Positions 5,212 to 38,809 of a DNA stretch of 46,879 bases are shown in pieces (the first letter of the stretch is position 1; every line of letters begins with the position of its first letter). The position numbers and the translations under genes were made by a program. The notes under the pieces are model-generated. The model ran no database searches, was not told the origin of the DNA, and saw only the letters and a list, made by a program, of their open reading frames with translations. This DNA is from Candidatus Berkelbacteria bacterium (GTDB lineage: Bacteria; Patescibacteriota; UBA1384; 2-12-FULL-50-11): assembly GCA_024654065.1 (NCBI GenBank), contig JANLIQ010000017.1, positions 1-46,879 of the forward strand, in the 5' to 3' direction.

Positions 5212-7012
<1,801 letters not shown>

Positions 7013-7041: not shown

Positions 7042-7365
7042 ATGAAGGAGAGGGGAGATATTCTCCAGGATCGTGGTGTACAACCGGAAGGGGAGACGGG
7101 TAAACAAGAGACCCGTTCCGAAGTTGTCGAGAGCCCAGAAACCGTCACCCCAGAAACTAGCTCATCCATATTGGAACCCACGGTATCCCAGGCACCAGAG
7201 AGTCAACAAGTACTAAAAGAGCTTTCTGTGAGTGACGGAAACGCTGTCGTTAGAAAACTCGAGGACTTACCTGCAGACAAGACAGTGGATCCGGTAACAC
7301 TCCAGGAGTTAATAGAGACCACAATGAGTATTACAGATACCGAGCATACTGACACTAATGTCTAG
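7042..7365 (+). CDS. small acidic, probably disordered protein; first gene of the ATPase operon
   Basis: 107 aa rich in E/T/S/P. An extended -10 (TGgTATATT) lies 6 nt upstream of the ATG. Overlaps the next CDS by 8 nt. Confidence 0.55.
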   Translation: MKERGDILQDRGVQPEGETGKQETRSEVVESPETVTPETSSSILEPTVSQAPESQQVLKELSVSDGNAVVRKLEDLPADKTVDPVTLQELIETTMSITDTEHTDTNV

Positions 7366-9790
7366 TTTTTTGCCGACCTACCTTCTTTATACGATATTGG
7401 CCGCGATTATTATTTTGCCGTTGGCACTCATGTGGTTTTTCCGTTACTGGCAAAGAAAAGATGTCTTAGGAGATATCAACTCCTTGATCTGTCTGTTGGT
7501 GTCGCTACCTAAGGAGGCGACTGCCGATCCGCATGCTGCATCCGAACCAGTAAAAGACTTCAAGGGCATGATCGCTCCAATGGAGCAGTTTTACTCAGCA
7601 CTGACGACCATTATTCACCAGCGACACTTTGTGGACTGGCTTTTCAGTACCCCAGCACATATTAGTTTTGAAATCTACTCGGTCGGTGGAGTTATAACTT
7701 TTGGTATTGTCTGTCCAAGACGAATCCGGACTATAGTGGAACGACAGGTACATAGTTTCTTTCCCAACGCCCAGATTAACTTGGGCACCCCACCGAAAGT
7801 GTTTACTACTGAACAGCCAAACATTTCCGGCGTTGTCTTTGAGCAAGGAAAGAATTTTGTTCTACCGCTTAAAACTTACCAATATCTAGAAGCAGATCCG
7901 TTGAGTACTCTCACTACAGCACTAACCAAACTTCAAGGTTCGGGCGCTGCAGCTATTCAGATGCTAATTCGTCCGATCTCCGATAACTGGCGCATGCACA
8001 CCGGAATTGCAAGCGGGCATGTAATAGCCAATAAGATGCATCTCGTTAATCGATCTGGTACTTCTAGGGTTATTGGTACTATTGGAGAGGCCTTAAAAAC
8101 ACCTAAGCCCGAGGAGTCTTCGGGCTACAAGCAGCGCTCACCGGCCCAAGAAGAAGTTCTCAAGGCACTACAAGAGAAGGGTAATAAAACTGGTTTCGAG
8201 TCGATTATTCGTGTGGTATCAACCGGAGAGACACCTCAAGCGGCCCAAGAGAATACCAAAGCCATTATCAGTGCTTTTTCCCAGTTCTATTCACCGCAGC
8301 TAAACAGTCTGAAGTACCGCCAGGTCGAACAAAAGAAGATTGCACGCGACTTCTTGTTGCGCCTGTTTTCCAGAGCCCCCAAGATGATTTTGAACGTTGA
8401 AGAACTTGCGAGTGTTTACCATTTTCCAAACCGCCACACCGAAACCCCAGGGCTAAAGTGGGTTTTGGCTAAAGCACTTCCTGCGCCATCTAACTTACCA
8501 AAAGAAGGCGTCGTAATAGGGGAGAGCAACTATCGAGGTGAGAAGCATTTAGTTCGGCTACAAGAAGAAGATCGTCGTCGTCATATTTTTATGATCGGAA
8601 AAACTGGTACTGGTAAAACTACACTCTTCGAAACAATGATCGAGCAAGATATGTATAACGGTAAGGGGTTGTGCTTTATAGATCCGTTAGGTGATGCAGT
8701 TGAATCTTTATTGAAGAAAGTTCCAACTCATCGCGCAAACGACGTTATAGTTTTTGACCCATCAGATACAGAGTACCCGATTGGTTTAAATTTATTGGAA
8801 TACACCAAACCGGAAGAAAAAGATTTCTTGATCCAAGAAGTTATTGAAATCTTCTATAAACTTTTCGACCCGAACCGGACTGGAATTGTTGGACCACAGT
8901 GGGAGCACTGGGCTCGAAACGCTGCCTTAACTGTAATGAGTCGGCCAGGGGGCGGTAGTTTAATTGATCTACCTCGGCTATTCACCGATGACGGCTTTCG
9001 TGAGCAGTCAGTTTCTTATGTTAGAGACCCGGTTGTTAAAGCATTCTGGGAACAACAGCTCGCCAAGACCGCCGATTTCCACAAGTCGGAGATGTATAAC
9101 TACTTCATCTCCAAATTCGGAAGATTCATGACGAACGACCTAATGCGTAATATTATCGGGCAAACTAAGAGCTCGTTTGATCTACGCGAGCTGATGGACT
9201 CCGGAAAGATTTTATTTGTTAATTTGGCTAAGGGTAAAATTGGCGAAATTAACTCAAATTTGTTAGGTCTAATACTGGTCTCAAAAATCCAAGTGGCAGC
9301 TTTTAGTCGGGCAGATACTCCCGAAGAACAACGTAAAGACTTCTATCTTTATGTAGATGAGTTTCAAAACTTTACAACCGATACTTTTGCAACCATCTTG
9401 GCCGAAGCTCGTAAGTACCGGCTGAATCTAAATATCACTAACCAATACTTTGCTCAGCTAACAGAGCATATACGCGATGCTGTAATTGGTAACGTCGGCA
9501 CACTCATATCTTATCGTATCGGGGCCGAAGACGGAGAATTCCTGGTAAAAGAAATGCCTGGATTAACAGCAGAAGATTTAACTAACCTTGATCGCTTCCA
9601 GGCGTATGTTAAGCTACTGATTGACTTAACGCCAACCAAGCCATTTTCTCTTTCGGGCATTAAGAGTCCTAACGCAGGTACTCCCGAAATGGTCACTTGG
9701 CTCAAGAAAGCAACGCGAGTTAAGTACACCAAGCCACCAGTTATATTTTCACCCACAACTAAGCCAGCAGAAACTGAAAAAAACCCATGA
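7358..9790 (+). CDS. membrane-anchored P-loop ATPase, FtsK/HerA/VirD4 (type IV coupling protein-like) superfamily, paralog 1
   Basis: N-terminal TM helix. Walker A is GKTGTGKTT, Walker B is FYLYVDEFQNF, and there is a GNVGTLISYRIG TraD/TraG-C-like segment. 810 aa. Confidence 0.8.
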   Translation: MSSFLPTYLLYTILAAIIILPLALMWFFRYWQRKDVLGDINSLICLLVSLPKEATADPHAASEPVKDFKGMIAPMEQFYSALTTIIHQRHFVDWLFSTPAHISFEIYSVGGVITFGIVCPRRIRTIVERQVHSFFPNAQINLGTPPKVFTTEQPNISGVVFEQGKNFVLPLKTYQYLEADPLSTLTTALTKLQGSGAAAIQMLIRPISDNWRMHTGIASGHVIANKMHLVNRSGTSRVIGTIGEALKTPKPEESSGYKQRSPAQEEVLKALQEKGNKTGFESIIRVVSTGETPQAAQENTKAIISAFSQFYSPQLNSLKYRQVEQKKIARDFLLRLFSRAPKMILNVEELASVYHFPNRHTETPGLKWVLAKALPAPSNLPKEGVVIGESNYRGEKHLVRLQEEDRRRHIFMIGKTGTGKTTLFETMIEQDMYNGKGLCFIDPLGDAVESLLKKVPTHRANDVIVFDPSDTEYPIGLNLLEYTKPEEKDFLIQEVIEIFYKLFDPNRTGIVGPQWEHWARNAALTVMSRPGGGSLIDLPRLFTDDGFREQSVSYVRDPVVKAFWEQQLAKTADFHKSEMYNYFISKFGRFMTNDLMRNIIGQTKSSFDLRELMDSGKILFVNLAKGKIGEINSNLLGLILVSKIQVAAFSRADTPEEQRKDFYLYVDEFQNFTTDTFATILAEARKYRLNLNITNQYFAQLTEHIRDAVIGNVGTLISYRIGAEDGEFLVKEMPGLTAEDLTNLDRFQAYVKLLIDLTPTKPFSLSGIKSPNAGTPEMVTWLKKATRVKYTKPPVIFSPTTKPAETEKNP

Positions 9791-12720
9791 ACGCCGCAGC
9801 AATTAACCTATTCTTTACCGCATTCTTTTTGTTTGGAGCAATACTACTCTGGTATCGTGCGGCACGCTTCCGTCGTAAAATTAACTGGGAAGAGCCAACA
9901 ACTTATACCTTGCTTTGTATTTCTGTCCCGAAGAATAACGAGCGAACTCCCCAGGCTGCCGAGCAAATGTTTGCAGCAATGCATGGAATCTTTCGCTCGG
10001 ATGCCAGCGATCAACCCCACATTAGCTTTGAAGTCGTTTCCAAGGCCCATGCGATCAATTTTTACGCTTACGTGCCAACAGACTTAAGGGACTTTGTGTC
10101 CAGTCAGATTTTTTCTCAATACCCAACTGTTGAGATTAGAGAAGTAGCACCAGATGGTGATTACGCTCAGCTTAGTGACGAAAAGCATATTGCGGCCACT
10201 GAACTTGACTTAAAAAAACCAACAGCCTTTCCTATTAAGACTTTTCAAAACTTCGAAGTGGATCCGCTCTCGTCAATTACTGGAGTTCTAGGGTCAATAA
10301 ATGAGCAAGAAGAAGTCTGGGTGCAAGTTCTGATAAAACCTATTGATGACGACTGGCAAGAATTGGGGAAGGCAGAAATTAAGAAAATTAAAGAGCCCTT
10401 CAAGGCAATGAGCTTGTGGGAGCTGACAAAAAAAGAGCTGAAAACCTTTGCCTTCGACTTAACCAAGCACGTCGTCATGGGCCCTCCAGCAGAGGATAAG
10501 AAGAAAGACGACAAAAAGAAAGATGACAAAGAGAGTCCAGAAAACGCTGCTGCCAAAGCAATCGAGGAAAAAATTACCAAGCTTGGCTTTGCTACCAACA
10601 TCCGAATATTAGCTGCTTCCACTGATGAGTATTCGGCTAGGGCAAAACTCGAACAGGTAGTGGGAGCTTTTAAGCAGTTCAACACTATCAATCTCAACGC
10701 TTTCGTCTCTAAAGACATCACCAGCGATCGAGAAGCCCACCAGCTATTCGCAAGCAGAACCTTCGGAGATAGCTCGATGATTTTTAACATTACGGAGCTT
10801 GCGTCGATCTATCACTACCCATCGCTGACCGTTGCTACGCCAACAATTGCCTGGGCGGGTTCAAAAAAAGGTGAGCCACCCGCCAACTTGCCGCTAGAGG
10901 GATCTGTCCCGGCAGACGAGTTGACCGTTTTTGGTCAGACCAACTTTCGTAGTGAGGTAAAAAGATTTGGTATTAAAAAGAAAGACCGGAGATTACATAT
11001 GTACATCATCGGAAAGACTGGTACTGGTAAGTCTACGTTGATGGAGAATATGATTATTGACGATATTACAGAGGGTAGGGGACTGGCGGTAGTTGACCCA
11101 CATGGTTCGTTGATAGAACACGTTTTGGAATTTATTCCTGAGCACAGACTGCAGGATGTTGTTTACTTCAACCCAGCCGACCGTGAATTCCCAGTCGGTT
11201 TCAACTTACTTGAGAATGTAGATCCCGAGCAAAAGAACCTCGTTGCTTCCGGAGTGGTCGGAATCATGGAGAAAATCTTTGGTGAGATCTCTTGGGGGCC
11301 GCGGTTAGAGTATATTTTACGCAATGTTATCTTGGCATTGCTGGAGTATCCCAACTCAACTTTCATGGGTATCATGCGCATACTAACGGATAACGCCTAT
11401 CGTAGGATGGTTTTAAATGAAGTGAAGGATCCAGTCATTCGCGACTTCTTTATTAACGAGTACGAAAAGTATGAACCTAAATTCCGTACTGAAGCCATCG
11501 CGCCGATTCAAAATAAGGTCGGTCAATTCTTGTCGGCTTCAACGATCCGTAACATTGTCGGTCAGCCTAAATCAACTGTTGATATCCGTCAGGTAATGGA
11601 TGAAGGTAAGATTTTACTTTGCGATTTATCTATAGGTAAGATTGGCGAGGATAATTCGGCTCTTCTGGGATCTATGTTAATTACCAAGATTCAGTTGGCG
11701 GCAATGGGTCGAGTGAATATAGCCGAGGACCAGAGGCGAGACTTCTACCTTTATGTGGACGAATTTCAGAATTTTGCTACCGAATCTTTCGCTACAATTC
11801 TCTCAGAGGCGCGCAAATATCGACTCAATTTAGCGATGGCCAACCAGTACACCGCGCAGATGCCTGAGAGCGTTTCTAATGCTGTTTTCGGCAACGTCGG
11901 AACGATGATAAGCTTCCGAGTCGGCGCACAAGATGCACAATTATTAGTTAAAGAGTATGAGCCAGTCTTTGATGTCAACGATTTAGTAAATTTGGATAAT
12001 TACCAGATCTACTTGAAGATGGCTATCGACGGTGTGACTGTGCCTGCCTTCTCGGCAGGGACTCTGCCACCACGATCTGAGAAGACCAACTTAACCGAGC
12101 AGATTATCGCTAACAGCAGGCAGATGTACTCACGTCCAGTCGAAGAAGTGGAGGATTACATTACTGAGTGGTCAAGTCCTATTAACCTCTCCGACCCCTC
12201 AAAGCAACCAATACCTCAGCCTTACGAAGAGCTAAAGACTAAAGCCGATGCCTTTGCTGGACCGGAAGGGGGACTGAAAGCAGGGGATAGCGAAGAGAAA
12301 AAAGAAGTGGCACTTGAAGGTAAAAGCAGGGGAGAGGGCGAAGAAAAAACTTCAGTTGCCAAAGATCCGGGTAGGGGGTCTACTTTACCAGCTGGTATGA
12401 AAACAGAGATCATTAAAGATAGGTTCGACCGACCTTGGTACGCCGTAACACAGGGCATAGGGGAGGAGGTCGAAGAAGCTGAAACGGAAAGAACCCCGAT
12501 AGTTGAACAACCGCAACAAACTGTATCTGAAGTGGGGGAGAATCTTGAAAAAAACACAGACCTCGATACTCAGAGCGGGGGAGAGGCCACAGAAAGTGAC
12601 CAATTAATTAGTTGGGACGATGCTGAGAAGCTAGGTATTCAGGTGAAAATGGAGCCAAATGACGGTCTAAATAATACCGCTGACGATCAGGGCCTAACAC
12701 CTTTAGACGAAATCCGTTAA
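9787..12720 (+). CDS. membrane-anchored P-loop ATPase, same family, paralog 2, with an acidic low-complexity C-terminal tail
   Basis: ATGA overlap with paralog 1. Walker A GKTGTGKST, Walker B FYLYVDEFQNF, then GNVGTMISFRVG. A KKDDKKKDDK insert is present, and the last ~190 aa are rich in E/D/G/T. Confidence 0.8.
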   Translation: MNAAAINLFFTAFFLFGAILLWYRAARFRRKINWEEPTTYTLLCISVPKNNERTPQAAEQMFAAMHGIFRSDASDQPHISFEVVSKAHAINFYAYVPTDLRDFVSSQIFSQYPTVEIREVAPDGDYAQLSDEKHIAATELDLKKPTAFPIKTFQNFEVDPLSSITGVLGSINEQEEVWVQVLIKPIDDDWQELGKAEIKKIKEPFKAMSLWELTKKELKTFAFDLTKHVVMGPPAEDKKKDDKKKDDKESPENAAAKAIEEKITKLGFATNIRILAASTDEYSARAKLEQVVGAFKQFNTINLNAFVSKDITSDREAHQLFASRTFGDSSMIFNITELASIYHYPSLTVATPTIAWAGSKKGEPPANLPLEGSVPADELTVFGQTNFRSEVKRFGIKKKDRRLHMYIIGKTGTGKSTLMENMIIDDITEGRGLAVVDPHGSLIEHVLEFIPEHRLQDVVYFNPADREFPVGFNLLENVDPEQKNLVASGVVGIMEKIFGEISWGPRLEYILRNVILALLEYPNSTFMGIMRILTDNAYRRMVLNEVKDPVIRDFFINEYEKYEPKFRTEAIAPIQNKVGQFLSASTIRNIVGQPKSTVDIRQVMDEGKILLCDLSIGKIGEDNSALLGSMLITKIQLAAMGRVNIAEDQRRDFYLYVDEFQNFATESFATILSEARKYRLNLAMANQYTAQMPESVSNAVFGNVGTMISFRVGAQDAQLLVKEYEPVFDVNDLVNLDNYQIYLKMAIDGVTVPAFSAGTLPPRSEKTNLTEQIIANSRQMYSRPVEEVEDYITEWSSPINLSDPSKQPIPQPYEELKTKADAFAGPEGGLKAGDSEEKKEVALEGKSRGEGEEKTSVAKDPGRGSTLPAGMKTEIIKDRFDRPWYAVTQGIGEEVEEAETERTPIVEQPQQTVSEVGENLEKNTDLDTQSGGEATESDQLISWDDAEKLGIQVKMEPNDGLNNTADDQGLTPLDEIR

Positions 12721-12970: not shown

Positions 12971-13174
12971 ATGAAACGATGCGATACCCTATTCGCTCTT
13001 CGCTGTTTCTTAACTGTTACGATCTGCCTGATAATTCTATCGGCTTTGACTTGGTTCGGTCCAAATCAATCGTTTCGGGATTCACGTCCTTGGTTCGTGT
13101 CGATGGCACTCGCAGGAATAGTCTTGTGTGTGGTCATCCTCAGGGACCTGAAGCAGCTTCCAAAGGACAGATAG
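12971..13174 (+). CDS. small two-TM membrane protein (hypothetical)
   Basis: GGAGG lies 7 nt upstream of the ATG. 67 aa with two hydrophobic segments. It sits alone in a 620-bp gap. Confidence 0.4.
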   Translation: MKRCDTLFALRCFLTVTICLIILSALTWFGPNQSFRDSRPWFVSMALAGIVLCVVILRDLKQLPKDR

Positions 13175-25700: not shown

Positions 25701-25985
25701 GAGATATTTATAAGCTAAAATATCCGTTGCTAGTTGAGTCCAGGTTGTCGGAACTTCTACATCAGTAATTTGAGAAATGACGTTGCCTTTTTCATCACTA
25801 ATAGTCGTTGTTCGTTTATCCCATTGGACGGTATCAAAAACATTCTCTCCAGGCTTGGTAAAACGGCGAGAAACCTTAAGACCAAGTTTCTTTCCAACGT
25901 TATCTTTTTCGGGTAGTTCGGCAGAAATTTCAACTGGTTTCAGAGCAATTTCACTTAATCTTTCGTTTTTTTCTTTTTTTGCCAT
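22758..25985 (-). CDS. nrdJ: class II (adenosylcobalamin-dependent) ribonucleotide reductase
   Basis: 1075 aa. Active-site motif is SNPCSEF. The C-terminal Cys-rich tail is CPVCGS..CYTCMSCGSTTGGCS. A strong SD (AAGGAGGG) precedes the ATG. Confidence 0.9.
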   Translation of the reverse strand: MAKKEKNERLSEIALKPVEISAELPEKDNVGKKLGLKVSRRFTKPGENVFDTVQWDKRTTTISDEKGNVISQITDVEVPTTWTQLATDILAYKYLRKAGVPTKEGREVSLKQAVYRIAHTIADFGEKFGYFATPEDRVNFEEDLTHILVNQKAAFNSPVWFNCGLYHQYKIAGSGGSFYWDFQQEKVIETKDSYRNPQCSACFILSVEDSLDGIFNLLKTESRVFKFGSGTGANYSRLRSKYERLSGGGTSSGMMSFLKVFDRAADSVKSGGTTRRAAKMVVVDMSHPEIEDFINWKVKEEKKVLALIEAGYSADFNGEAYHTVSGQNSNNSVRITDEFMEAVTADGEWTTRYVGNGEPHKTYKARDLMDQVAKAAWQCADPGVQFDTTINKWHTCPNTDRINASNPCSEFMFLDSTSCNLASINLVKFTDDKGNFDVEGYRHACKIMFIAQEIEVDLSSYPTEAITKNSHDYRPLGLGYANLGTMLMLKGVPYDSPEALATAGALSAIMTGHAYKTSAEMAAVKGAFEGFTKNRAPMLNVMKMHRQAAYAINETLCPNNLLVAARQDWDEAVALGEQFGYRNSQASVIAPTGTIGLLLDCDTTGIEPDFALVKFKKLAGGGSMKIVNNAVKQALQNLGYTQDQQQEIIDYALGVGRFIETTPINRSSLASKGLTSSEIDAVEKTLLAAFDISFSFNRMVLGDDIFTRLGISTDEEKQPSFSLLGRLGFTSDEIAESNLVICGTQTVEGAPHLKTEHLPVFDCANRCGATGTRFIEPLAHVRMMAAVQPFISGAISKTINLPNEATLQDVEEVYSESWKLGLKALALYRDGSKLSQPLNTKKDETEGKTEVVEKVVEKVVYAPKRRRLPDERRSITHKFQIAGHKGFITVGLYEDGGAGEIFVTMAKQGSTISGLMDAFAKSVSIGLQYGVPLTMVVRQFANSRFEPYGFTTNPQIRIAKSIIDYIARYLGIKFLSPTDQAELGIRADADASSLQTQIDFNEPVVEQPIVNNGSQIDDQASPQLTPTEAEEKQVSSPNTQAQIDSPPCPVCGSITFKTGTCYTCMSCGSTTGGCS

Positions 25986-26062
25986 TACTTACCCTCCTTT
26001 AATTTTTAGACGTAGGAAACTACCGTACCACGGTCTCACCTTGTCTTGTCAAGAGCATATTT

Positions 26063-26092
26063 TACGGGAATTGTACGGGAAAGTTACGGTAG
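26063..26092 (+). repeat. three direct TACGG(G/T)A repeats at exact 11-bp spacing
   Basis: TACGGGAA at 26063, TACGGGAA at 26074 and TACGGTAG at 26085. An inverted copy CTACCGTA lies at 26021-26028. Confidence 0.7.
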
Positions 26093-26093
26093 G

Positions 26094-26465
26094 TTATCAG
26101 ATAAGGGAAAGGGGCTTTGCTAATGTGAAACTCACATTGCGAAGCCCCTTTGGGAAGTCGGGTCAGACATCTCAACGAATCGTCGTTGGATTATCTGCTA
26201 GCGGTAACGCCGCTAGGCGTTTCTCCGTAAAAGGAGCGTTGCCACTGGTACCAGGTAGATTTCGTGGCGCTAACCTGCCTGGGTTCGATGTCGAGATGCC
26301 CGAGTCCGGGCGACCTCGTCTCGAACACTTACAGACTAACAGCAATAACAGGAATGTCAAGGATCTATCGGATAAAAAAAGCCCGCCGTGCCGTGATGGC
26401 CGTGCGGGTAGACGCTTCACGGTCGGCTAAAAGGTGAGACTCACCTCCTGACCGCCGATTTCGAG
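26094..26465 (+). ncRNA. rnpB: probable RNase P RNA (bacterial type A-like, reduced); ends uncertain
   Basis: A long P3-like hairpin (26108-26151) is followed by GGGAAGUCGGGUC (compare GGAAAGUCCGGGC). A P8-like hairpin has a UAACG loop (26198-26216) and a P9-like CUCCGUAAAAGGAG follows. CGGGUAGACGCUUCACGG (26405-26422) resembles the L15 region. Two crossing long-range helices are present. Confidence 0.5.
26374..26409 (-). terminator. intrinsic terminator of the GC-rich orphan gene
   Basis: On the minus strand a GC-rich hairpin is followed by U7 (plus-strand A7 at 26374-26380), 18 nt after the stop codon. Confidence 0.6.
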
Positions 26466-26906
26466 TGTGGTACGCGAGCGTTTCCAGAGCCAGATTTCCG
26501 AGAACGCTGTCGGCCAACCTTGTCTCCGTTGCCAGGAATGCTGGGCGGTGAAGTTGACGACCAGTACCTTTTTCGGGCTGTGAATGAACGCGAAGAGCTT
26601 CGCCTGTAGTTCCCACCGATCGCAATTCGATCGGATGATCATATCCTCACCGAAGTCGGGGAATTGTTCGCTAAGGGTGCCGGTAGCCCAACAACCCCCT
26701 TCCTTTAGAGGCCAGTTGACGGTGACCCCAAGCGGACTGCCCGTTGAAAACGTGAAGGTCGGACATTCGGCGTGATAACCGCCATTAGCCAGCCCGGCTA
26801 GAAAGTCGAACGTGGCCTGTTTCCAGTACTTGCCGTCGTACTCCCAACGACCAAAACAGGATAGTGTCGCAACGGCCGTTTGCTCTGAAGATGTAAGTTT
26901 CATCAT
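26427..26906 (-). CDS. GC-rich orphan protein, Trp-rich, unknown function
   Basis: ~57% GC. GGGGGA lies just upstream of the tandem ATGs at 26906/26903. The track start at 26939 is less likely. No motif recognised. Confidence 0.5.
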   Translation of the reverse strand: MMKLTSSEQTAVATLSCFGRWEYDGKYWKQATFDFLAGLANGGYHAECPTFTFSTGSPLGVTVNWPLKEGGCWATGTLSEQFPDFGEDMIIRSNCDRWELQAKLFAFIHSPKKVLVVNFTAQHSWQRRQGWPTAFSEIWLWKRSRTTLEIGGQEVSLTF

Positions 26907-27065
26907 GGTCCCCCATGGCTTTCGCGTGCACAATGTCAACGGAGATATTCCGTCGAGAGGTCAGGCGATAAGTAGCGCCATGCTAGCGGAAAGACGGCAA
27001 AAAGTCAAGAGACTAGCTCAATAAGTTGTTATCGTTTGCCGCTAGGGGCTACTAATAGTCAAAAA

Positions 27066-30673: not shown

Positions 30674-31225
30674 CTACCTTCTGACACCAAACTTCAGGGC
30701 TACAAGCGTATCATATCCTTGGGTGACACGATCGGCTTCGGTCACACCTAATCGCTGAAGAAACTTAAATAATTTGTTTTGAGTTTCTTCAGGATTATTG
30801 TCGGTGACCGATAGTTCTTCTAGCTCGATAAAAGTACCCAAGTCTTCAACCTCGTCAACGCAAATCTCTATTCCGTGATAATCCGCTTTTTGCCGTTGCT
30901 TCTTTACCTCTACTGATAGTTTGTACTCAAGCGCTTCCAGTATTCTGGTAAGGGCGTCCGGGTCAACGACAGCTGTCTCCTCCGTTTGAACAGCTAGCTC
31001 GTTGACTCCGGAGCGTTTGAGCGCTAAAACAGCTTGGTTATTTTCTTTACGAATTCGCAGAAAGTTAGTATCTGGTTTGAATATTGTGATTTCCTCGAGA
31101 TCCTTCGGCGAAAATATCAGATCGTGTTGATAGGTGGGCTCTGATAGCTTTATCCCAAGTGACCCTAATCTTGCAAACAGCAGTCCAGGATTTGTTACTC
31201 TCGCCTTTACCTCAATCTCATTCAT
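30674..31225 (-). CDS. CYTH-domain protein (class IV adenylate cyclase / triphosphate tunnel metalloenzyme)
   Basis: N-terminal ExExK motif (EIEVKARV). 183 aa. Confidence 0.75.
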   Translation of the reverse strand: MNEIEVKARVTNPGLLFARLGSLGIKLSEPTYQHDLIFSPKDLEEITIFKPDTNFLRIRKENNQAVLALKRSGVNELAVQTEETAVVDPDALTRILEALEYKLSVEVKKQRQKADYHGIEICVDEVEDLGTFIELEELSVTDNNPEETQNKLFKFLQRLGVTEADRVTQGYDTLVALKFGVRR

Positions 31226-33426: not shown

Positions 33427-33967
33427 CACCATAAATTGTTTTAATGTAGTCCAGTAGCTCGGGAATAGTTGCTTCGTTGACGAAGTGCTTTTTGTTTTTA
33501 AGCTTGAGTACTTTTGGTTGAAGCTTGCTGGCAATAAACTCAAATTCAGTCTGTGGAATATATGGGTCGGCATCATCGTAAATTAAAGCAATCTTCTCTT
33601 GATTGACTTTTATTGCTGACCAATCCCACGGCTTGTCGTAGTAGCCGCTCTGTTTTTCGAGCTCGTCGTCCAAATCCGTACAGCTAGGTGATATTAAGAC
33701 CGAACCTTTTATCTTATGATTTTCGGCGTAACGCATCGAAGCTGTACCGCCCGATGACCAGCCAACTAAAACATCGTCTTTACCAACTTTGACGTGATTT
33801 TCGAGAAAAGGTAACCAGTACTCGGCTCTAGCGATTACTGAATCTGGCATCGTTTCGAAGAATGTCGGGAAGCCTAGTTTTTCTAGTTCCATTTTCAACC
33901 ATTCACCAAAAGCAAACGACCAATGGGTTGCGTGATTGCCATGGATGAAGATTATTCTTGGTTTCAT
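33419..33967 (-). CDS. alpha/beta hydrolase (YdeN/RBBP9-like serine hydrolase)
   Basis: Contains IIFIHGN and the nucleophile elbow GWSSGG. 182 aa. Confidence 0.7.
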   Translation of the reverse strand: MKPRIIFIHGNHATHWSFAFGEWLKMELEKLGFPTFFETMPDSVIARAEYWLPFLENHVKVGKDDVLVGWSSGGTASMRYAENHKIKGSVLISPSCTDLDDELEKQSGYYDKPWDWSAIKVNQEKIALIYDDADPYIPQTEFEFIASKLQPKVLKLKNKKHFVNEATIPELLDYIKTIYGDV

Positions 33968-34554
33968 TTCTTTCTTGCTAATAGCCAGGCGGGCTCGGGA
34001 ATGAAAGTTATTTCCGACCAGGTGTCGATCTCGTGCTCGGTAAAATCGTAATACTTTTGGTAGGCAGTTTCGACGCTACCGTGCAAGGCATCTTTCCAGT
34101 CAAAACCAAGCTTGGTCGCCAAATCTTTAATCTCTGATTCGTTCGGCGCTTCTAGCTCGACAAATGCTGGGATCAACGGCCAGGTGTCGATCGTAATTTC
34201 ACAATTTCCAAGCGTCCACTTCTCTCTTTTAGTCTCTTGGTAGGATTTCTGAACTAGACCGATTGCCTTAAGTAGGTCAACCGTTTTCTCGAAGTCCCCT
34301 ACCGTTGTCTCGATCTCTTGCGTTCCGTGAAGAGTGCGATCATTCAGCTGTTTATACGAGAAAGTGATCTTGTCTCCTTCGTCACGAACTCGGATCCAGC
34401 CACCAATTTCTTTTAGTCGCGAATCTGGGTAATCAAAAACACAGCGACGCATCTGACGCTCGGCATGAACGAGTTTGGCACTGATCGCTCTCAACCGGTT
34501 CCGCAGTTTGTCGGCAACAACATCCAAGAACTTAGCTTCAACTTCTACTTGCAT
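33964..34554 (-). CDS. CYTH-domain protein, second copy
   Basis: N-terminal ExExK motif (VEVEAKF). ATGA overlap with the hydrolase gene. Confidence 0.7.
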   Translation of the reverse strand: MQVEVEAKFLDVVADKLRNRLRAISAKLVHAERQMRRCVFDYPDSRLKEIGGWIRVRDEGDKITFSYKQLNDRTLHGTQEIETTVGDFEKTVDLLKAIGLVQKSYQETKREKWTLGNCEITIDTWPLIPAFVELEAPNESEIKDLATKLGFDWKDALHGSVETAYQKYYDFTEHEIDTWSEITFIPEPAWLLARKK

Positions 34555-38113: not shown

Positions 38114-38809
38114 ATGAGAAAGAATATGAAAAAAACCTTGTTTGGTCGTTTGACCAAACTTCAAGGGAGGATTACTAAGTTCGTTAAAAAATCGCGAGAC
38201 AGCCGACGTTTCATCTTAACGATGGTCGCCGTCTGGACTATAATCCCTGCTCTTTCTGTCAATGCGGCTGATAGCAACATCACCCCAATTGAGCCAATTG
38301 TTACTAATGTAACGGTTGGACAAAATCTTCAGATCGAGCAACCTAAATTCTCTGTCGAGCTTCGTCAATCTCCTCGCCAGATAGCTAAAAAGAAAGAGGA
38401 AATCCGATTGGCAACCGCTGTTATTCAAACAACAATTAGCGGAACCGACGAAGAGAAACGTGTATGGGCTCAAAAAGCTGCTCAAACTTGGGGAATTGAC
38501 TGGAAATTGCTTTGGGCTGTATGGAAGGTTGAATCTGGTACTCAAATGAGTACTGCCGTTCGATCTTATGCCGGTGCTCAAGGACCACTTCAATTCATGC
38601 CAGGTACGTGGCGAGCATATGCTCAAGACGGAAATGGTGACGGTGTTAAGAACATTAACGACGCCCGGGATAGTCTGTTTGGAGCTGCTAAGTTATTAGC
38701 AGTTAACGGTGCTGCTTCAGGAAATGTTGACGGAGCCTTGCTTCGCTACAATCATTCCCTTAGTTATGTAGCCCATGTCAAACGGATTGCTGCCTCAATT
38801 GGTGGCTAA
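38114..38809 (+). CDS. membrane-anchored lytic transglycosylase (SLT/MltB-like domain)
   Basis: Contains GAQGPLQFMPGTWRAYAQDGNGDG and a TM anchor. Confidence 0.8.
   Translation: MRKNMKKTLFGRLTKLQGRITKFVKKSRDSRRFILTMVAVWTIIPALSVNAADSNITPIEPIVTNVTVGQNLQIEQPKFSVELRQSPRQIAKKKEEIRLATAVIQTTISGTDEEKRVWAQKAAQTWGIDWKLLWAVWKVESGTQMSTAVRSYAGAQGPLQFMPGTWRAYAQDGNGDGVKNINDARDSLFGAAKLLAVNGAASGNVDGALLRYNHSLSYVAHVKRIAASIGG

Follow-up and report, generated by a model that had tools for sequence, protein, structure and literature searches.

A tandem pair of membrane-anchored, coupling-protein-like ATPases with a DUF8128 domain at a conserved Patescibacteria locus

Architecture and domain identity of the ATPase pair

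The system described here is a block of three co-directional genes in the Patescibacteria contig JANLIQ010000017.1, analyzed as a single stretch of 46,879 nt (the window, whose positions serve as coordinates throughout). Its main components are two large paralogous proteins, A (810 amino acids [aa]; 7358..9790) and B (977 aa; 9787..12720), preceded by an open reading frame (ORF) for a small, acidic and probably disordered partner (107 aa; 7042..7365). All three genes, and the features mapped within them, lie on the + strand. Each large protein comprises an N-terminal transmembrane (TM) anchor, a DUF8128 domain and an ATPase of the kind found in type IV coupling proteins (T4CPs); B continues into a long acidic tail, while A has none. 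An 8-nt overlap joins the small ORF to the start of A, and the A stop and B start overlap as ATGA, which confirms the overlaps described in an initial annotation of this DNA, where A and B were read as translationally coupled. The overlapping frames, together with the positional conservation described below, support co-expression of A and B, putatively in an operon with the small ORF. Promoter and terminator scans of the window gave chance-level, uninformative output, and tRNA and Rfam searches of the window returned no tRNA and no regulatory RNA match.

A and B align over ~800 residues with 35% identity (E = 2e-157) and are full-length paralogs with a shared TM-domain-ATPase architecture, as had been proposed. 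Each begins with a single hydrophobic helix by Kyte-Doolittle analysis, spanning residues 6–28 of A (7373..7441; helix 7–41 in the structural model) and residues 4–23 of B (9796..9855), and followed by a basic cluster (RYWQRK in A, RAARFRRK in B). By the positive-inside rule, this cluster would place the N terminus outside and the remainder of each protein in the cytoplasm. Walker A is GKTGTGKT in A (residues 414–421; 8597..8620) and GKTGTGKS in B (residues 409–416; 11011..11034), and Walker B is VDEFQNF in both (residues 666–672 of A, 9353..9373; residues 657–663 of B, 11755..11775). The motifs listed in the initial annotation, GKTGTGK(T/S)T, DEFQNF and GNVGT(L/M)IS(Y/F)R(I/V)G, are present in both proteins. 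Across 50 orthologues of the A and B groups, the two Walker motifs and residues R685 and Q696 do not vary; each paralog therefore looks competent for catalysis.

The ~350-aa region between anchor and ATPase, left unassigned by the initial annotation, is Pfam PF26449 (DUF8128) in the precomputed annotation of window protein P0001 and of all homologues listed. A local Pfam search of A and B returned no PF26449 match, and the assignment is that of the precomputed annotation. The AlphaFold2 model of the A N-domain alone (residues 41–385; 7478..8512) has a pLDDT of 88 and a pTM of 0.85, and its predicted fold resembles that of the VirB4 N-terminal domain. The ten best matches of this model in the PDB by Foldseek are all TrwK/VirB4 (E 1.6e-7 to 1.6e-5, probability 1.00, TMq 0.37–0.44, rmsd 8–10 Å); below rank 10 come unrelated ferredoxin-like proteins at TM ~0.17. 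The structure prediction that the initial annotation proposed for this region therefore points to DUF8128 as a VirB4-type N-terminal domain, an identity that we call probable because the TM-score is moderate.

The full-length model of A (pLDDT 84.3, pTM 0.73) likewise retrieves TrwK/VirB4 first (E = 2e-17, ~850–940 aligned columns), followed by HerA, Cagβ and TrwB. The ATPase half superposes best on TrwB (TMt 0.59–0.65, rmsd ~5.3 Å), with Cagβ at TMt 0.52–0.55, and in the model carries an all-alpha insertion (helices 486–600) between Walker A and Walker B. Pfam TrwB_AAD_bind (PF10412) matches A at 31.3 bits and B at 29.9 bits, above its cut-off of 20.5, and T4SS-DNA_transf (PF02534) matches A at 32.5 bits and B at only 17.4 (cut-off 20.1). 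The best NCBIfam matches are SXT_TraD and the CD1115 VirD4-like family; since the TraD/VirD4 equivalogs all score far below their cut-offs, A and B are distant members of the T4CPs. With Pfam T4CP matches above cut-off, the original description of a VirD4/T4CP-like P-loop ATPase of the FtsK-HerA superfamily is borne out, and we consider the T4CP-like identity of the ATPase well supported.

Matches to the FtsK, HerA, CedB/CedD and VirB4 families are marginal and cluster around Walker A. The VirB4 families CagE_TrbE_VirB, TraC-F-type and P-loop_TraG gave no Pfam match at E ≤ 1, and the marginal NCBIfam matches of VirB4 type are VirB4_plasma (E = 5e-4 for A, 3.5e-4 for B) and TraC-F-type (E = 0.015 for B). 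FtsK Pfam PF01580 reaches only E = 0.04–0.17, and neither a gamma domain nor a four-helix membrane region (4TM) is present. HerA-type DUF87 scores 26.2 bits with B and 17.7 with A; structurally, HerA matches the ATPase core only, the N-domain gives no HerA match, and no nuclease gene adjoins the pair. By these matches, A and B would be hybrids in which a VirB4-like layout is joined to a VirD4-like ATPase.

The small protein has a pI of 4.2, 68% disorder-promoting residues and no aromatic residues, a composition that supports its initial description as acidic and probably disordered; the chance of an open frame of this length is ~0.6%. ORFs of 97–141 aa occupy the same slot upstream of A in six related loci (L085, L086, L087, L001, L003 and L004). 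All six products are acidic or Pro/Glu-rich, with only 13–26% sequence identity but with a common N-terminal ERG and a C-terminal amphipathic helix; in two further loci (L005 and L006) the small ORF is apparently missing. In 74 of 84 related loci, a small ORF closely precedes the A-type gene, and many of these 74 form homologous groups (27, 10 and smaller) with a disordered N terminus and a helical C terminus. Searches with phmmer and jackhmmer did not link the 107-aa protein by sequence to the other small upstream ORFs. Across classes, the small partners share position, size, composition and a terminal helix only, and any homology among them is putative.

The C-terminal tail of B (residues 786–977; 12142..12717) is acidic and of low complexity, with a pI of 4.2. 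It is ~180–190 aa long with a pI of 4.2–4.3, and the median tail length over the 61 B sequences in which the tail could be delimited is 157 aa, against 15 aa, essentially no tail, in A orthologues. The initial description of a ~190-aa acidic low-complexity tail holds in length and composition; the tail is not featureless, since it carries two conserved motifs, LISWDDAExLGI and LTPLDEIR. The first is LISWDDAEKLGI in the window (residues 940–951; 12604..12639), with the consensus L(I/T)(S/T)W(D/E)(D/Q)AE.LG(I/V) in the B orthologues listed. The second, at the extreme C terminus (residues 970–977; 12694..12717), has the consensus (L/T)(T/L)P(L/I)(D/K)E(I/L)(R) in the same set.

Conservation in Patescibacteria and relatives on mobile elements

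Upstream of the small ORF are a His-phosphatase and TGT. Downstream of B, and convergent with it, are SecF, SecD, a mannose-1-P-guanylyltransferase-like enzyme and a pseudouridine synthase, with an AddA-like helicase-nuclease, PduO, class II ribonucleotide reductase (RNR), FtsZ, FtsA and others further downstream. All family-assigned genes across the window are housekeeping or generic, and the GC content of the A/B block matches its flanks. The gene series TGT–small ORF–A–B–SecF–SecD–NTP-transferase, with an optional ~175-aa ORF after A, is also found in three genomes whose A proteins are 54–69% identical to that of the window, and three closer relatives keep small ORF-A-B, two of them with TGT just upstream. 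This synteny is kept across deep Patescibacteria divergences, and sequence comparison indicates that the pair is old, vertically inherited and chromosomal.

The optional ORF between A and B is conserved and apparently folded in some tandem-type genomes (L003 10599–11132; L004 10520–11047). Its shared motif is GVFDG...VPSNYASKSKLV.GD, and the ORF is absent from the window.

Both A and B have a strongly conserved group of orthologues. The best 120 matches of A are at least 52% identical and so, over the core, are the best 120 of B; PF26449 is precomputed on every one of them. The B orthologues, at 55–61% core identity, vary in their tails. When species-representative genomes were scanned, relatives came up under many candidate-phylum labels, among them Woese-, Levy-, Davies-, Staskawicz-, Magasanik-, Falkow-, Peregrini-, Gracili- and Saccharibacteria. 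The tandem A-B arrangement with TGT and/or SecDF flanks occurs only in seven of the 84 related loci (L001–L007), and the other 77 (L008–L084) have a solitary A-type gene. UPGMA clustering separates the B group from all A-type proteins, with the Saccharibacteria-labeled and the Gracilibacteria/Peregrinibacteria-labeled proteins as A-type subgroups of their own. With the N-domain as sole query, ~1,614 clusters at 50% identity are retrieved, and in all of them the domain begins 40–80 residues in. In true Saccharimonadia the A-type gene is divergent and unlinked, and the closest relatives of the window are labeled inconsistently, as Berkelbacteria or Saccharimonadales; a Saccharibacteria framing is therefore uncertain, and "Patescibacteria" is preferable.

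Near the solitary A-type genes we observed a XerC/D-like tyrosine recombinase in 20 loci, DivIC in 17, PduO in 16 and class II RNR in 14 (examples are L027 12423–13433 and L056 10830–11309). PduO and RNR also lie 9–13 kb downstream of B in the window. The conserved neighbors (XerC/D-like, DivIC, RNR, PduO, penicillin-binding protein [PBP] and MurD) were considered as functional evidence and set aside as lineage synteny.

Relatives of the whole protein are also found on plasmids and phages. The family phrog_5156 matches near end to end (E = 2e-75 for A, 1e-90 for B), and tblastn homologues cover 63–93% of the query, N-domain included, at 21–34% identity. Homologues were found in 378 plasmid records, mostly from Streptomyces, Bacillus, Staphylococcus, haloarchaea and Sulfolobus. 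One of them, HVO_RS19425 of Haloferax volcanii pHV1, comes directly after a 984-aa "transfer complex protein" that matches P-loop_TraG and AAA_10, domains of VirB4 type, weakly and below threshold. Another, P5635_00045, is carried by a 65-kb Bacillus subtilis plasmid (CP120602.1), ~3 kb upstream of TcpC, TcpD and TcpE genes. The first 404 and 335 residues of the pHV1 and B. subtilis homologues, respectively, match the DUF8128 region of the A/B profile by hhalign (probability 97% and 99%). Their positions within transfer clusters argue that the DUF8128 family occupies the coupling-protein slot of type IV secretion systems (T4SSs) on monoderm and archaeal mobile elements. The plasmid and phage ATPases share the full-length architecture of A and B, DUF8128 included; unlike A and B, the plasmid proteins are carried on mobile elements beside VirB4-like or TcpC/D/E genes, in single copy, with lengths of 913–1304 aa (two loci inspected). 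The published VirD4 of pLS20 (gene 48, two TM helices) was not equated with the Bacillus plasmid homologue, as the two are not obviously the same protein.

The phage homologues found by tblastn are those of Bacillus phage G (gp156; JN638751.1 90862–93111, full length), CP-51-like phages and phage D6E, with a partial match in SPO1 (gp27.4; FJ230960.1 92981–94537); gp156 and gp27.4 have no assigned function. Coupling-protein-like ATPases are also encoded, then, by large lytic Bacillus phages.

Genes of this kind are already represented in published surveys of Patescibacteria. Among 3,035 genomes, 2,918 contain VirD4-like T4CP homologues, 5,713 in all and only 148 of them near virB4, and VirB4 itself is found in 2,417 genomes and placed inside the MPF-FATA class (PMC12102498). 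The T4CP count in Table S3 of that study pools two hidden Markov model (HMM) profiles, t4cp1 and t4cp2, and many of the assemblies are incomplete metagenome-assembled genomes (MAGs); because of the pooling, we dropped a reading of the totals as ~2 T4CPs per genome corresponding to the A/B pair. The same table lists near-tandem t4cp2 pairs in some genomes, including RAAC4_OD1_1, in which the pair is at genes 83/85 and VirB6/VirB3 are at 531/533. No mention of DUF8128 or PF26449 was found in the literature searched.

Genetic data are available for Southlakia epibionticum ML1, whose T4SS cluster, SEML1_0006–0019, is essential and contains no recognizable coupling protein (PMC10633639). In Table S1 of that study, SEML1_0142 is scored ES/ES/ES (essential); SEML1_0141, a 139-aa ORF whose end lies 12 nt upstream of SEML1_0142, took no insertions and is scored GD/ES/ES; and SEML1_0293 is scored NE (non-essential). 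Saccharimonadia A-type proteins have the PGAP name "TraM recognition domain-containing protein" in common with SEML1_0142, and gene order around the A-type gene of a Saccharimonadaceae locus (L089) matches that of SEML1_0138–0144: ComM-like (−), 127 aa, 141 aa, ATPase, 191 aa (−), DUF11/CLIPPER (−). From the shared name and gene order, SEML1_0142 is therefore the A-type orthologue. Like A, it is preceded by a small ORF; unlike the window pair, SEML1_0142 and SEML1_0293 are ~140 kb apart and do not adjoin TGT/SecDF. Saccharimonadia A-type proteins are longer than A (915–1002 aa in the relatives listed, and 1,019 aa from a 3,060-bp gene in ML1) and ~39% identical to it, and their small partners have a different, better conserved C-terminal helix. 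The family is catalogued across the ultra-small bacteria of the Candidate Phyla Radiation (CPR) but uncharacterized; the only genome-wide screen, made in the single CPR species with genetic tests, scores the A-type protein and the small partner as essential.

Proposed coupling role and alternatives

A and B resemble two components of T4SSs. Like TrwB, VirD4, TraD and Cagβ, they belong to the FtsK-HerA superfamily, are membrane-anchored ATPases and have both Walker motifs and an all-alpha insertion. TraD and DotL bind partners through C-terminal extensions, and the acidic extension of B, with its terminal motifs, recalls these partner-binding tails; the small partner of A recalls CagZ bound to Cagβ (8dol). 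With VirB4/TrwK (R388), A and B share an overall layout of ~800 aa in which an alpha/beta domain at the N terminus precedes the ATPase at the C terminus. Unlike VirB4/TrwK, A and B have no above-cut-off match to a VirB4 sequence family, their ATPase half is nearer to T4CPs, and no VirB3, VirB6 or VirB8 lies beside them in the window scans or the 84 loci; moreover, Patescibacteria carry a separate, bona fide VirB4 that is distinct from A and B (PMC12102498).

The interpretation that we favor, at about even confidence, is that A and B are domesticated, duplicated coupling proteins of the monoderm/archaeal type which, with the small partner, would feed a T4SS encoded elsewhere. By analogy with other T4CPs, they would assemble as membrane-anchored hexamers on the cytoplasmic face, where ATP hydrolysis would drive substrate recruitment and feeding into an MPF-FATA-class channel encoded elsewhere on the chromosome. 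A and the small partner may form the core motor, their orthologues being essential in S. epibionticum. B may act as an accessory receptor whose acidic tail, with its putative terminal docking motifs, would tether adaptors or substrates in the manner of the TraD and DotL extensions. The cargo is more likely to be protein or another macromolecule exchanged with the host than conjugative DNA, because Patescibacteria are mostly without relaxases. Occupancy of the coupling slot on monoderm and archaeal elements agrees with the published MPF-FATA placement of Patescibacteria VirB4, and the essentiality of both the T4SS and the A-type gene in ML1 fits a single pathway. The "minimal or unconventional" apparatus proposed in the initial annotation is unsupported, given the presence of VirB4 in most Patescibacteria genomes and the published finding that T4CP genes are nearly always far from virB4 (PMC12102498). 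It is further weakened by the plasmid family members that adjoin VirB4, TcpC, TcpD and TcpE genes, and by RAAC4_OD1_1, which has both components.

Several observations weigh against a T4SS-coupling role. Canonical T4CPs have two TM helices directly before the ATPase, whereas A and B have one and carry the extra 345-aa DUF8128 between anchor and ATPase; they also differ in being tandem paralogs in a chromosomal core-gene context with no relaxase or T4SS found nearby. The structural match of the N-domain to VirB4 is only moderate (TM ~0.43), and direct and profile searches of PDB sequences retrieve only TrwB and DotL, at E ~1e-4 and over the Walker A region alone. The window ORFs that were scanned, over 7 kb on the upstream and 34 kb on the downstream side, include no integrase, relaxase, VirB-type or pilin gene, and the initial annotation's statement that no channel, relaxase or pilin genes are adjacent holds to that extent. 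The neighborhood survey across CPR that it had suggested found housekeeping flanks and no T4SS gene within ±10 kb in any of the 84 related loci. T4CP-like genes are also found in more genomes than VirB4 (2,918 versus 2,417 of 3,035; PMC12102498). Finally, the assignment of the non-essential SEML1_0293 as the B-type protein of ML1 is tentative, being suggested by near-coincident Pfam coordinates only.

The main rival is a T4SS-independent function, in which descendants of coupling proteins are exapted motors driving another membrane process common to Patescibacteria. Candidates for that process are macromolecule import or export, or a VirB4-like extraction or assembly of membrane or pilus subunits, with the small protein as regulator or adaptor. 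We regard this as possible, though on balance unlikely. Besides the lack of T4SS linkage and the excess of T4CP-like matches over VirB4, it draws on the VirB4-like N-domain, which suggests contacts unlike those of a canonical T4CP, and on neighbors that are always housekeeping, envelope or division genes (TGT and SecDF here; RNR, PduO, XerC/D-like, DivIC, PBP and MurD elsewhere). Exaptation was also raised by the authors of the Patescibacteria survey, because "the" ML1 t4cp homologue is non-essential (PMC12102498). That statement fits SEML1_0293 only, since SEML1_0142 and SEML1_0141 are scored essential (PMC10633639); the published dispensability therefore covers one of two homologues. However, the plasmid family members lie within transfer gene clusters, ordinary systems often have a t4cp gene that is unlinked (PMC12102498), MAG incompleteness and mixed HMM profiles may account for part of the excess over VirB4, and ML1 requires the A-type gene as well as its T4SS.

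A role as a DNA pump, either in chromosome handling (FtsK/SpoIIIE-like) or in uptake during natural transformation (ComFA-like), is improbable. FtsK-HerA superfamily membership and the weak matches to HerA/DUF87, CedD and CedB are compatible with it, as are the tyrosine recombinase and DivIC neighbors in other classes, the FtsZ and FtsA genes 15–20 kb away in the window, and the natural competence of Patescibacteria (PMC10633639). However, FtsK/SpoIIIE proteins share the superfamily with A and B but have 4TM, alpha and gamma domains that A and B lack, and the FtsK Pfam match reaches only the E values given above. ML1 already has a separate canonical and essential FtsK, SEML1_0096, with 4TM, alpha and gamma domains, and we reject replacement of FtsK by these proteins for that reason. 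HerA, in turn, belongs to the same superfamily and matches the core at TMt ~0.5, whereas A and B have neither the HAS barrel nor a NurA partner. In ML1, comEC-dependent competence is dispensable and the A-type gene is essential. The recombinase/DivIC synteny is confined to some loci, mostly with Microgenomatia-type labels, and may reflect shared ancestry.

Two further alternatives are very improbable. T4CP-type HMM matches and the plasmid-borne relatives would be expected of coupling proteins of an ordinary integrative conjugative element (ICE) with its remaining genes outside the window, the scenario that the initial annotation itself named as its refutation; the housekeeping flanks, free of integrase, relaxase and T4SS genes among the ORFs scanned, the matching GC content, and a TGT-to-NTP-transferase block kept where A is only 54–69% identical rule out an ordinary ICE, and on the same grounds of flanks, composition and deep synteny we reject an ICE or prophage origin. 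Both orthologous groups, moreover, are about 53–61% identical over many lineages, as is typical of core genes. PADLOC matches to HerA models and to mad8 (A, E = 1.6e-17; B, E = 1.7e-13) raise the second alternative, anti-phage defense ATPases of the HerA or MADS type, which is likewise rejected: the matches are confined to the ATPase core, the window has no adjacent nuclease, methylase, Sir2 or other partner for defense, and genes that are near-universal, syntenic and strongly conserved, one of them essential, are unlike those of defense islands.

Under the coupling interpretation, the unlinked DUF8128 ATPases offer a handle on the cargo question, as coupling proteins select cargo and these are the likely coupling module. 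The identification of DUF8128 as a probable VirB4-type N-terminal domain bears in addition on the divergence of VirB4 and VirD4. We tentatively put forward a bolder proposal, rather doubtful as a whole: the A-type ATPase and its small disordered partner would be the essential module that energizes, and acts as receptor for, either the Patescibacteria T4SS or some other route directed at the host, the hybrid would be a surviving VirB4/VirD4 intermediate, and the motifs of the B tail would constitute a cargo recruitment code. If the link to the T4SS fails, the genes would point to a machine that is essential, so far unrecognized and spread widely through a large radiation of bacteria.

Other features of the window

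Close to the three genes, the 620-nt gap that separates B from secF holds a 67-aa ORF with two hydrophobic helices (12971–13174, +), which has no Pfam match and could be a small membrane protein of the operon or a chance ORF. On the other side, the TGT ORF (5612–7012, +) has a mechanical start at 5612 that is too far upstream, as the TGT domain begins ~100 residues in. Between the His-phosphatase and TGT is a GC-rich stretch (0.53) with a 193-aa ORF (5212–5793, +) that has no family match.

A second GC-rich segment (0.53) separates RNR from FtsZ (25777–26939); it holds two ORFs without family matches (217 aa, +; 170 aa, −) and gave no Rfam match even at E < 0.1. Two separate CYTH-domain genes are found less than 4 kb apart (30674–31225, −; 33964–34554, −). 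A lytic transglycosylase with an SLT domain (38114–38809, +) represents the enzyme class of VirB1; it was excluded as a T4SS component because the domain is generic and the gene is 25 kb from the ATPases. Between 41000 and 45000 the GC content drops to 0.38–0.41, over a block whose genes include one of CCA-adding/poly(A) polymerase type, a 431-aa ORF that has no match, an ABC ATPase and an NYN-domain gene.

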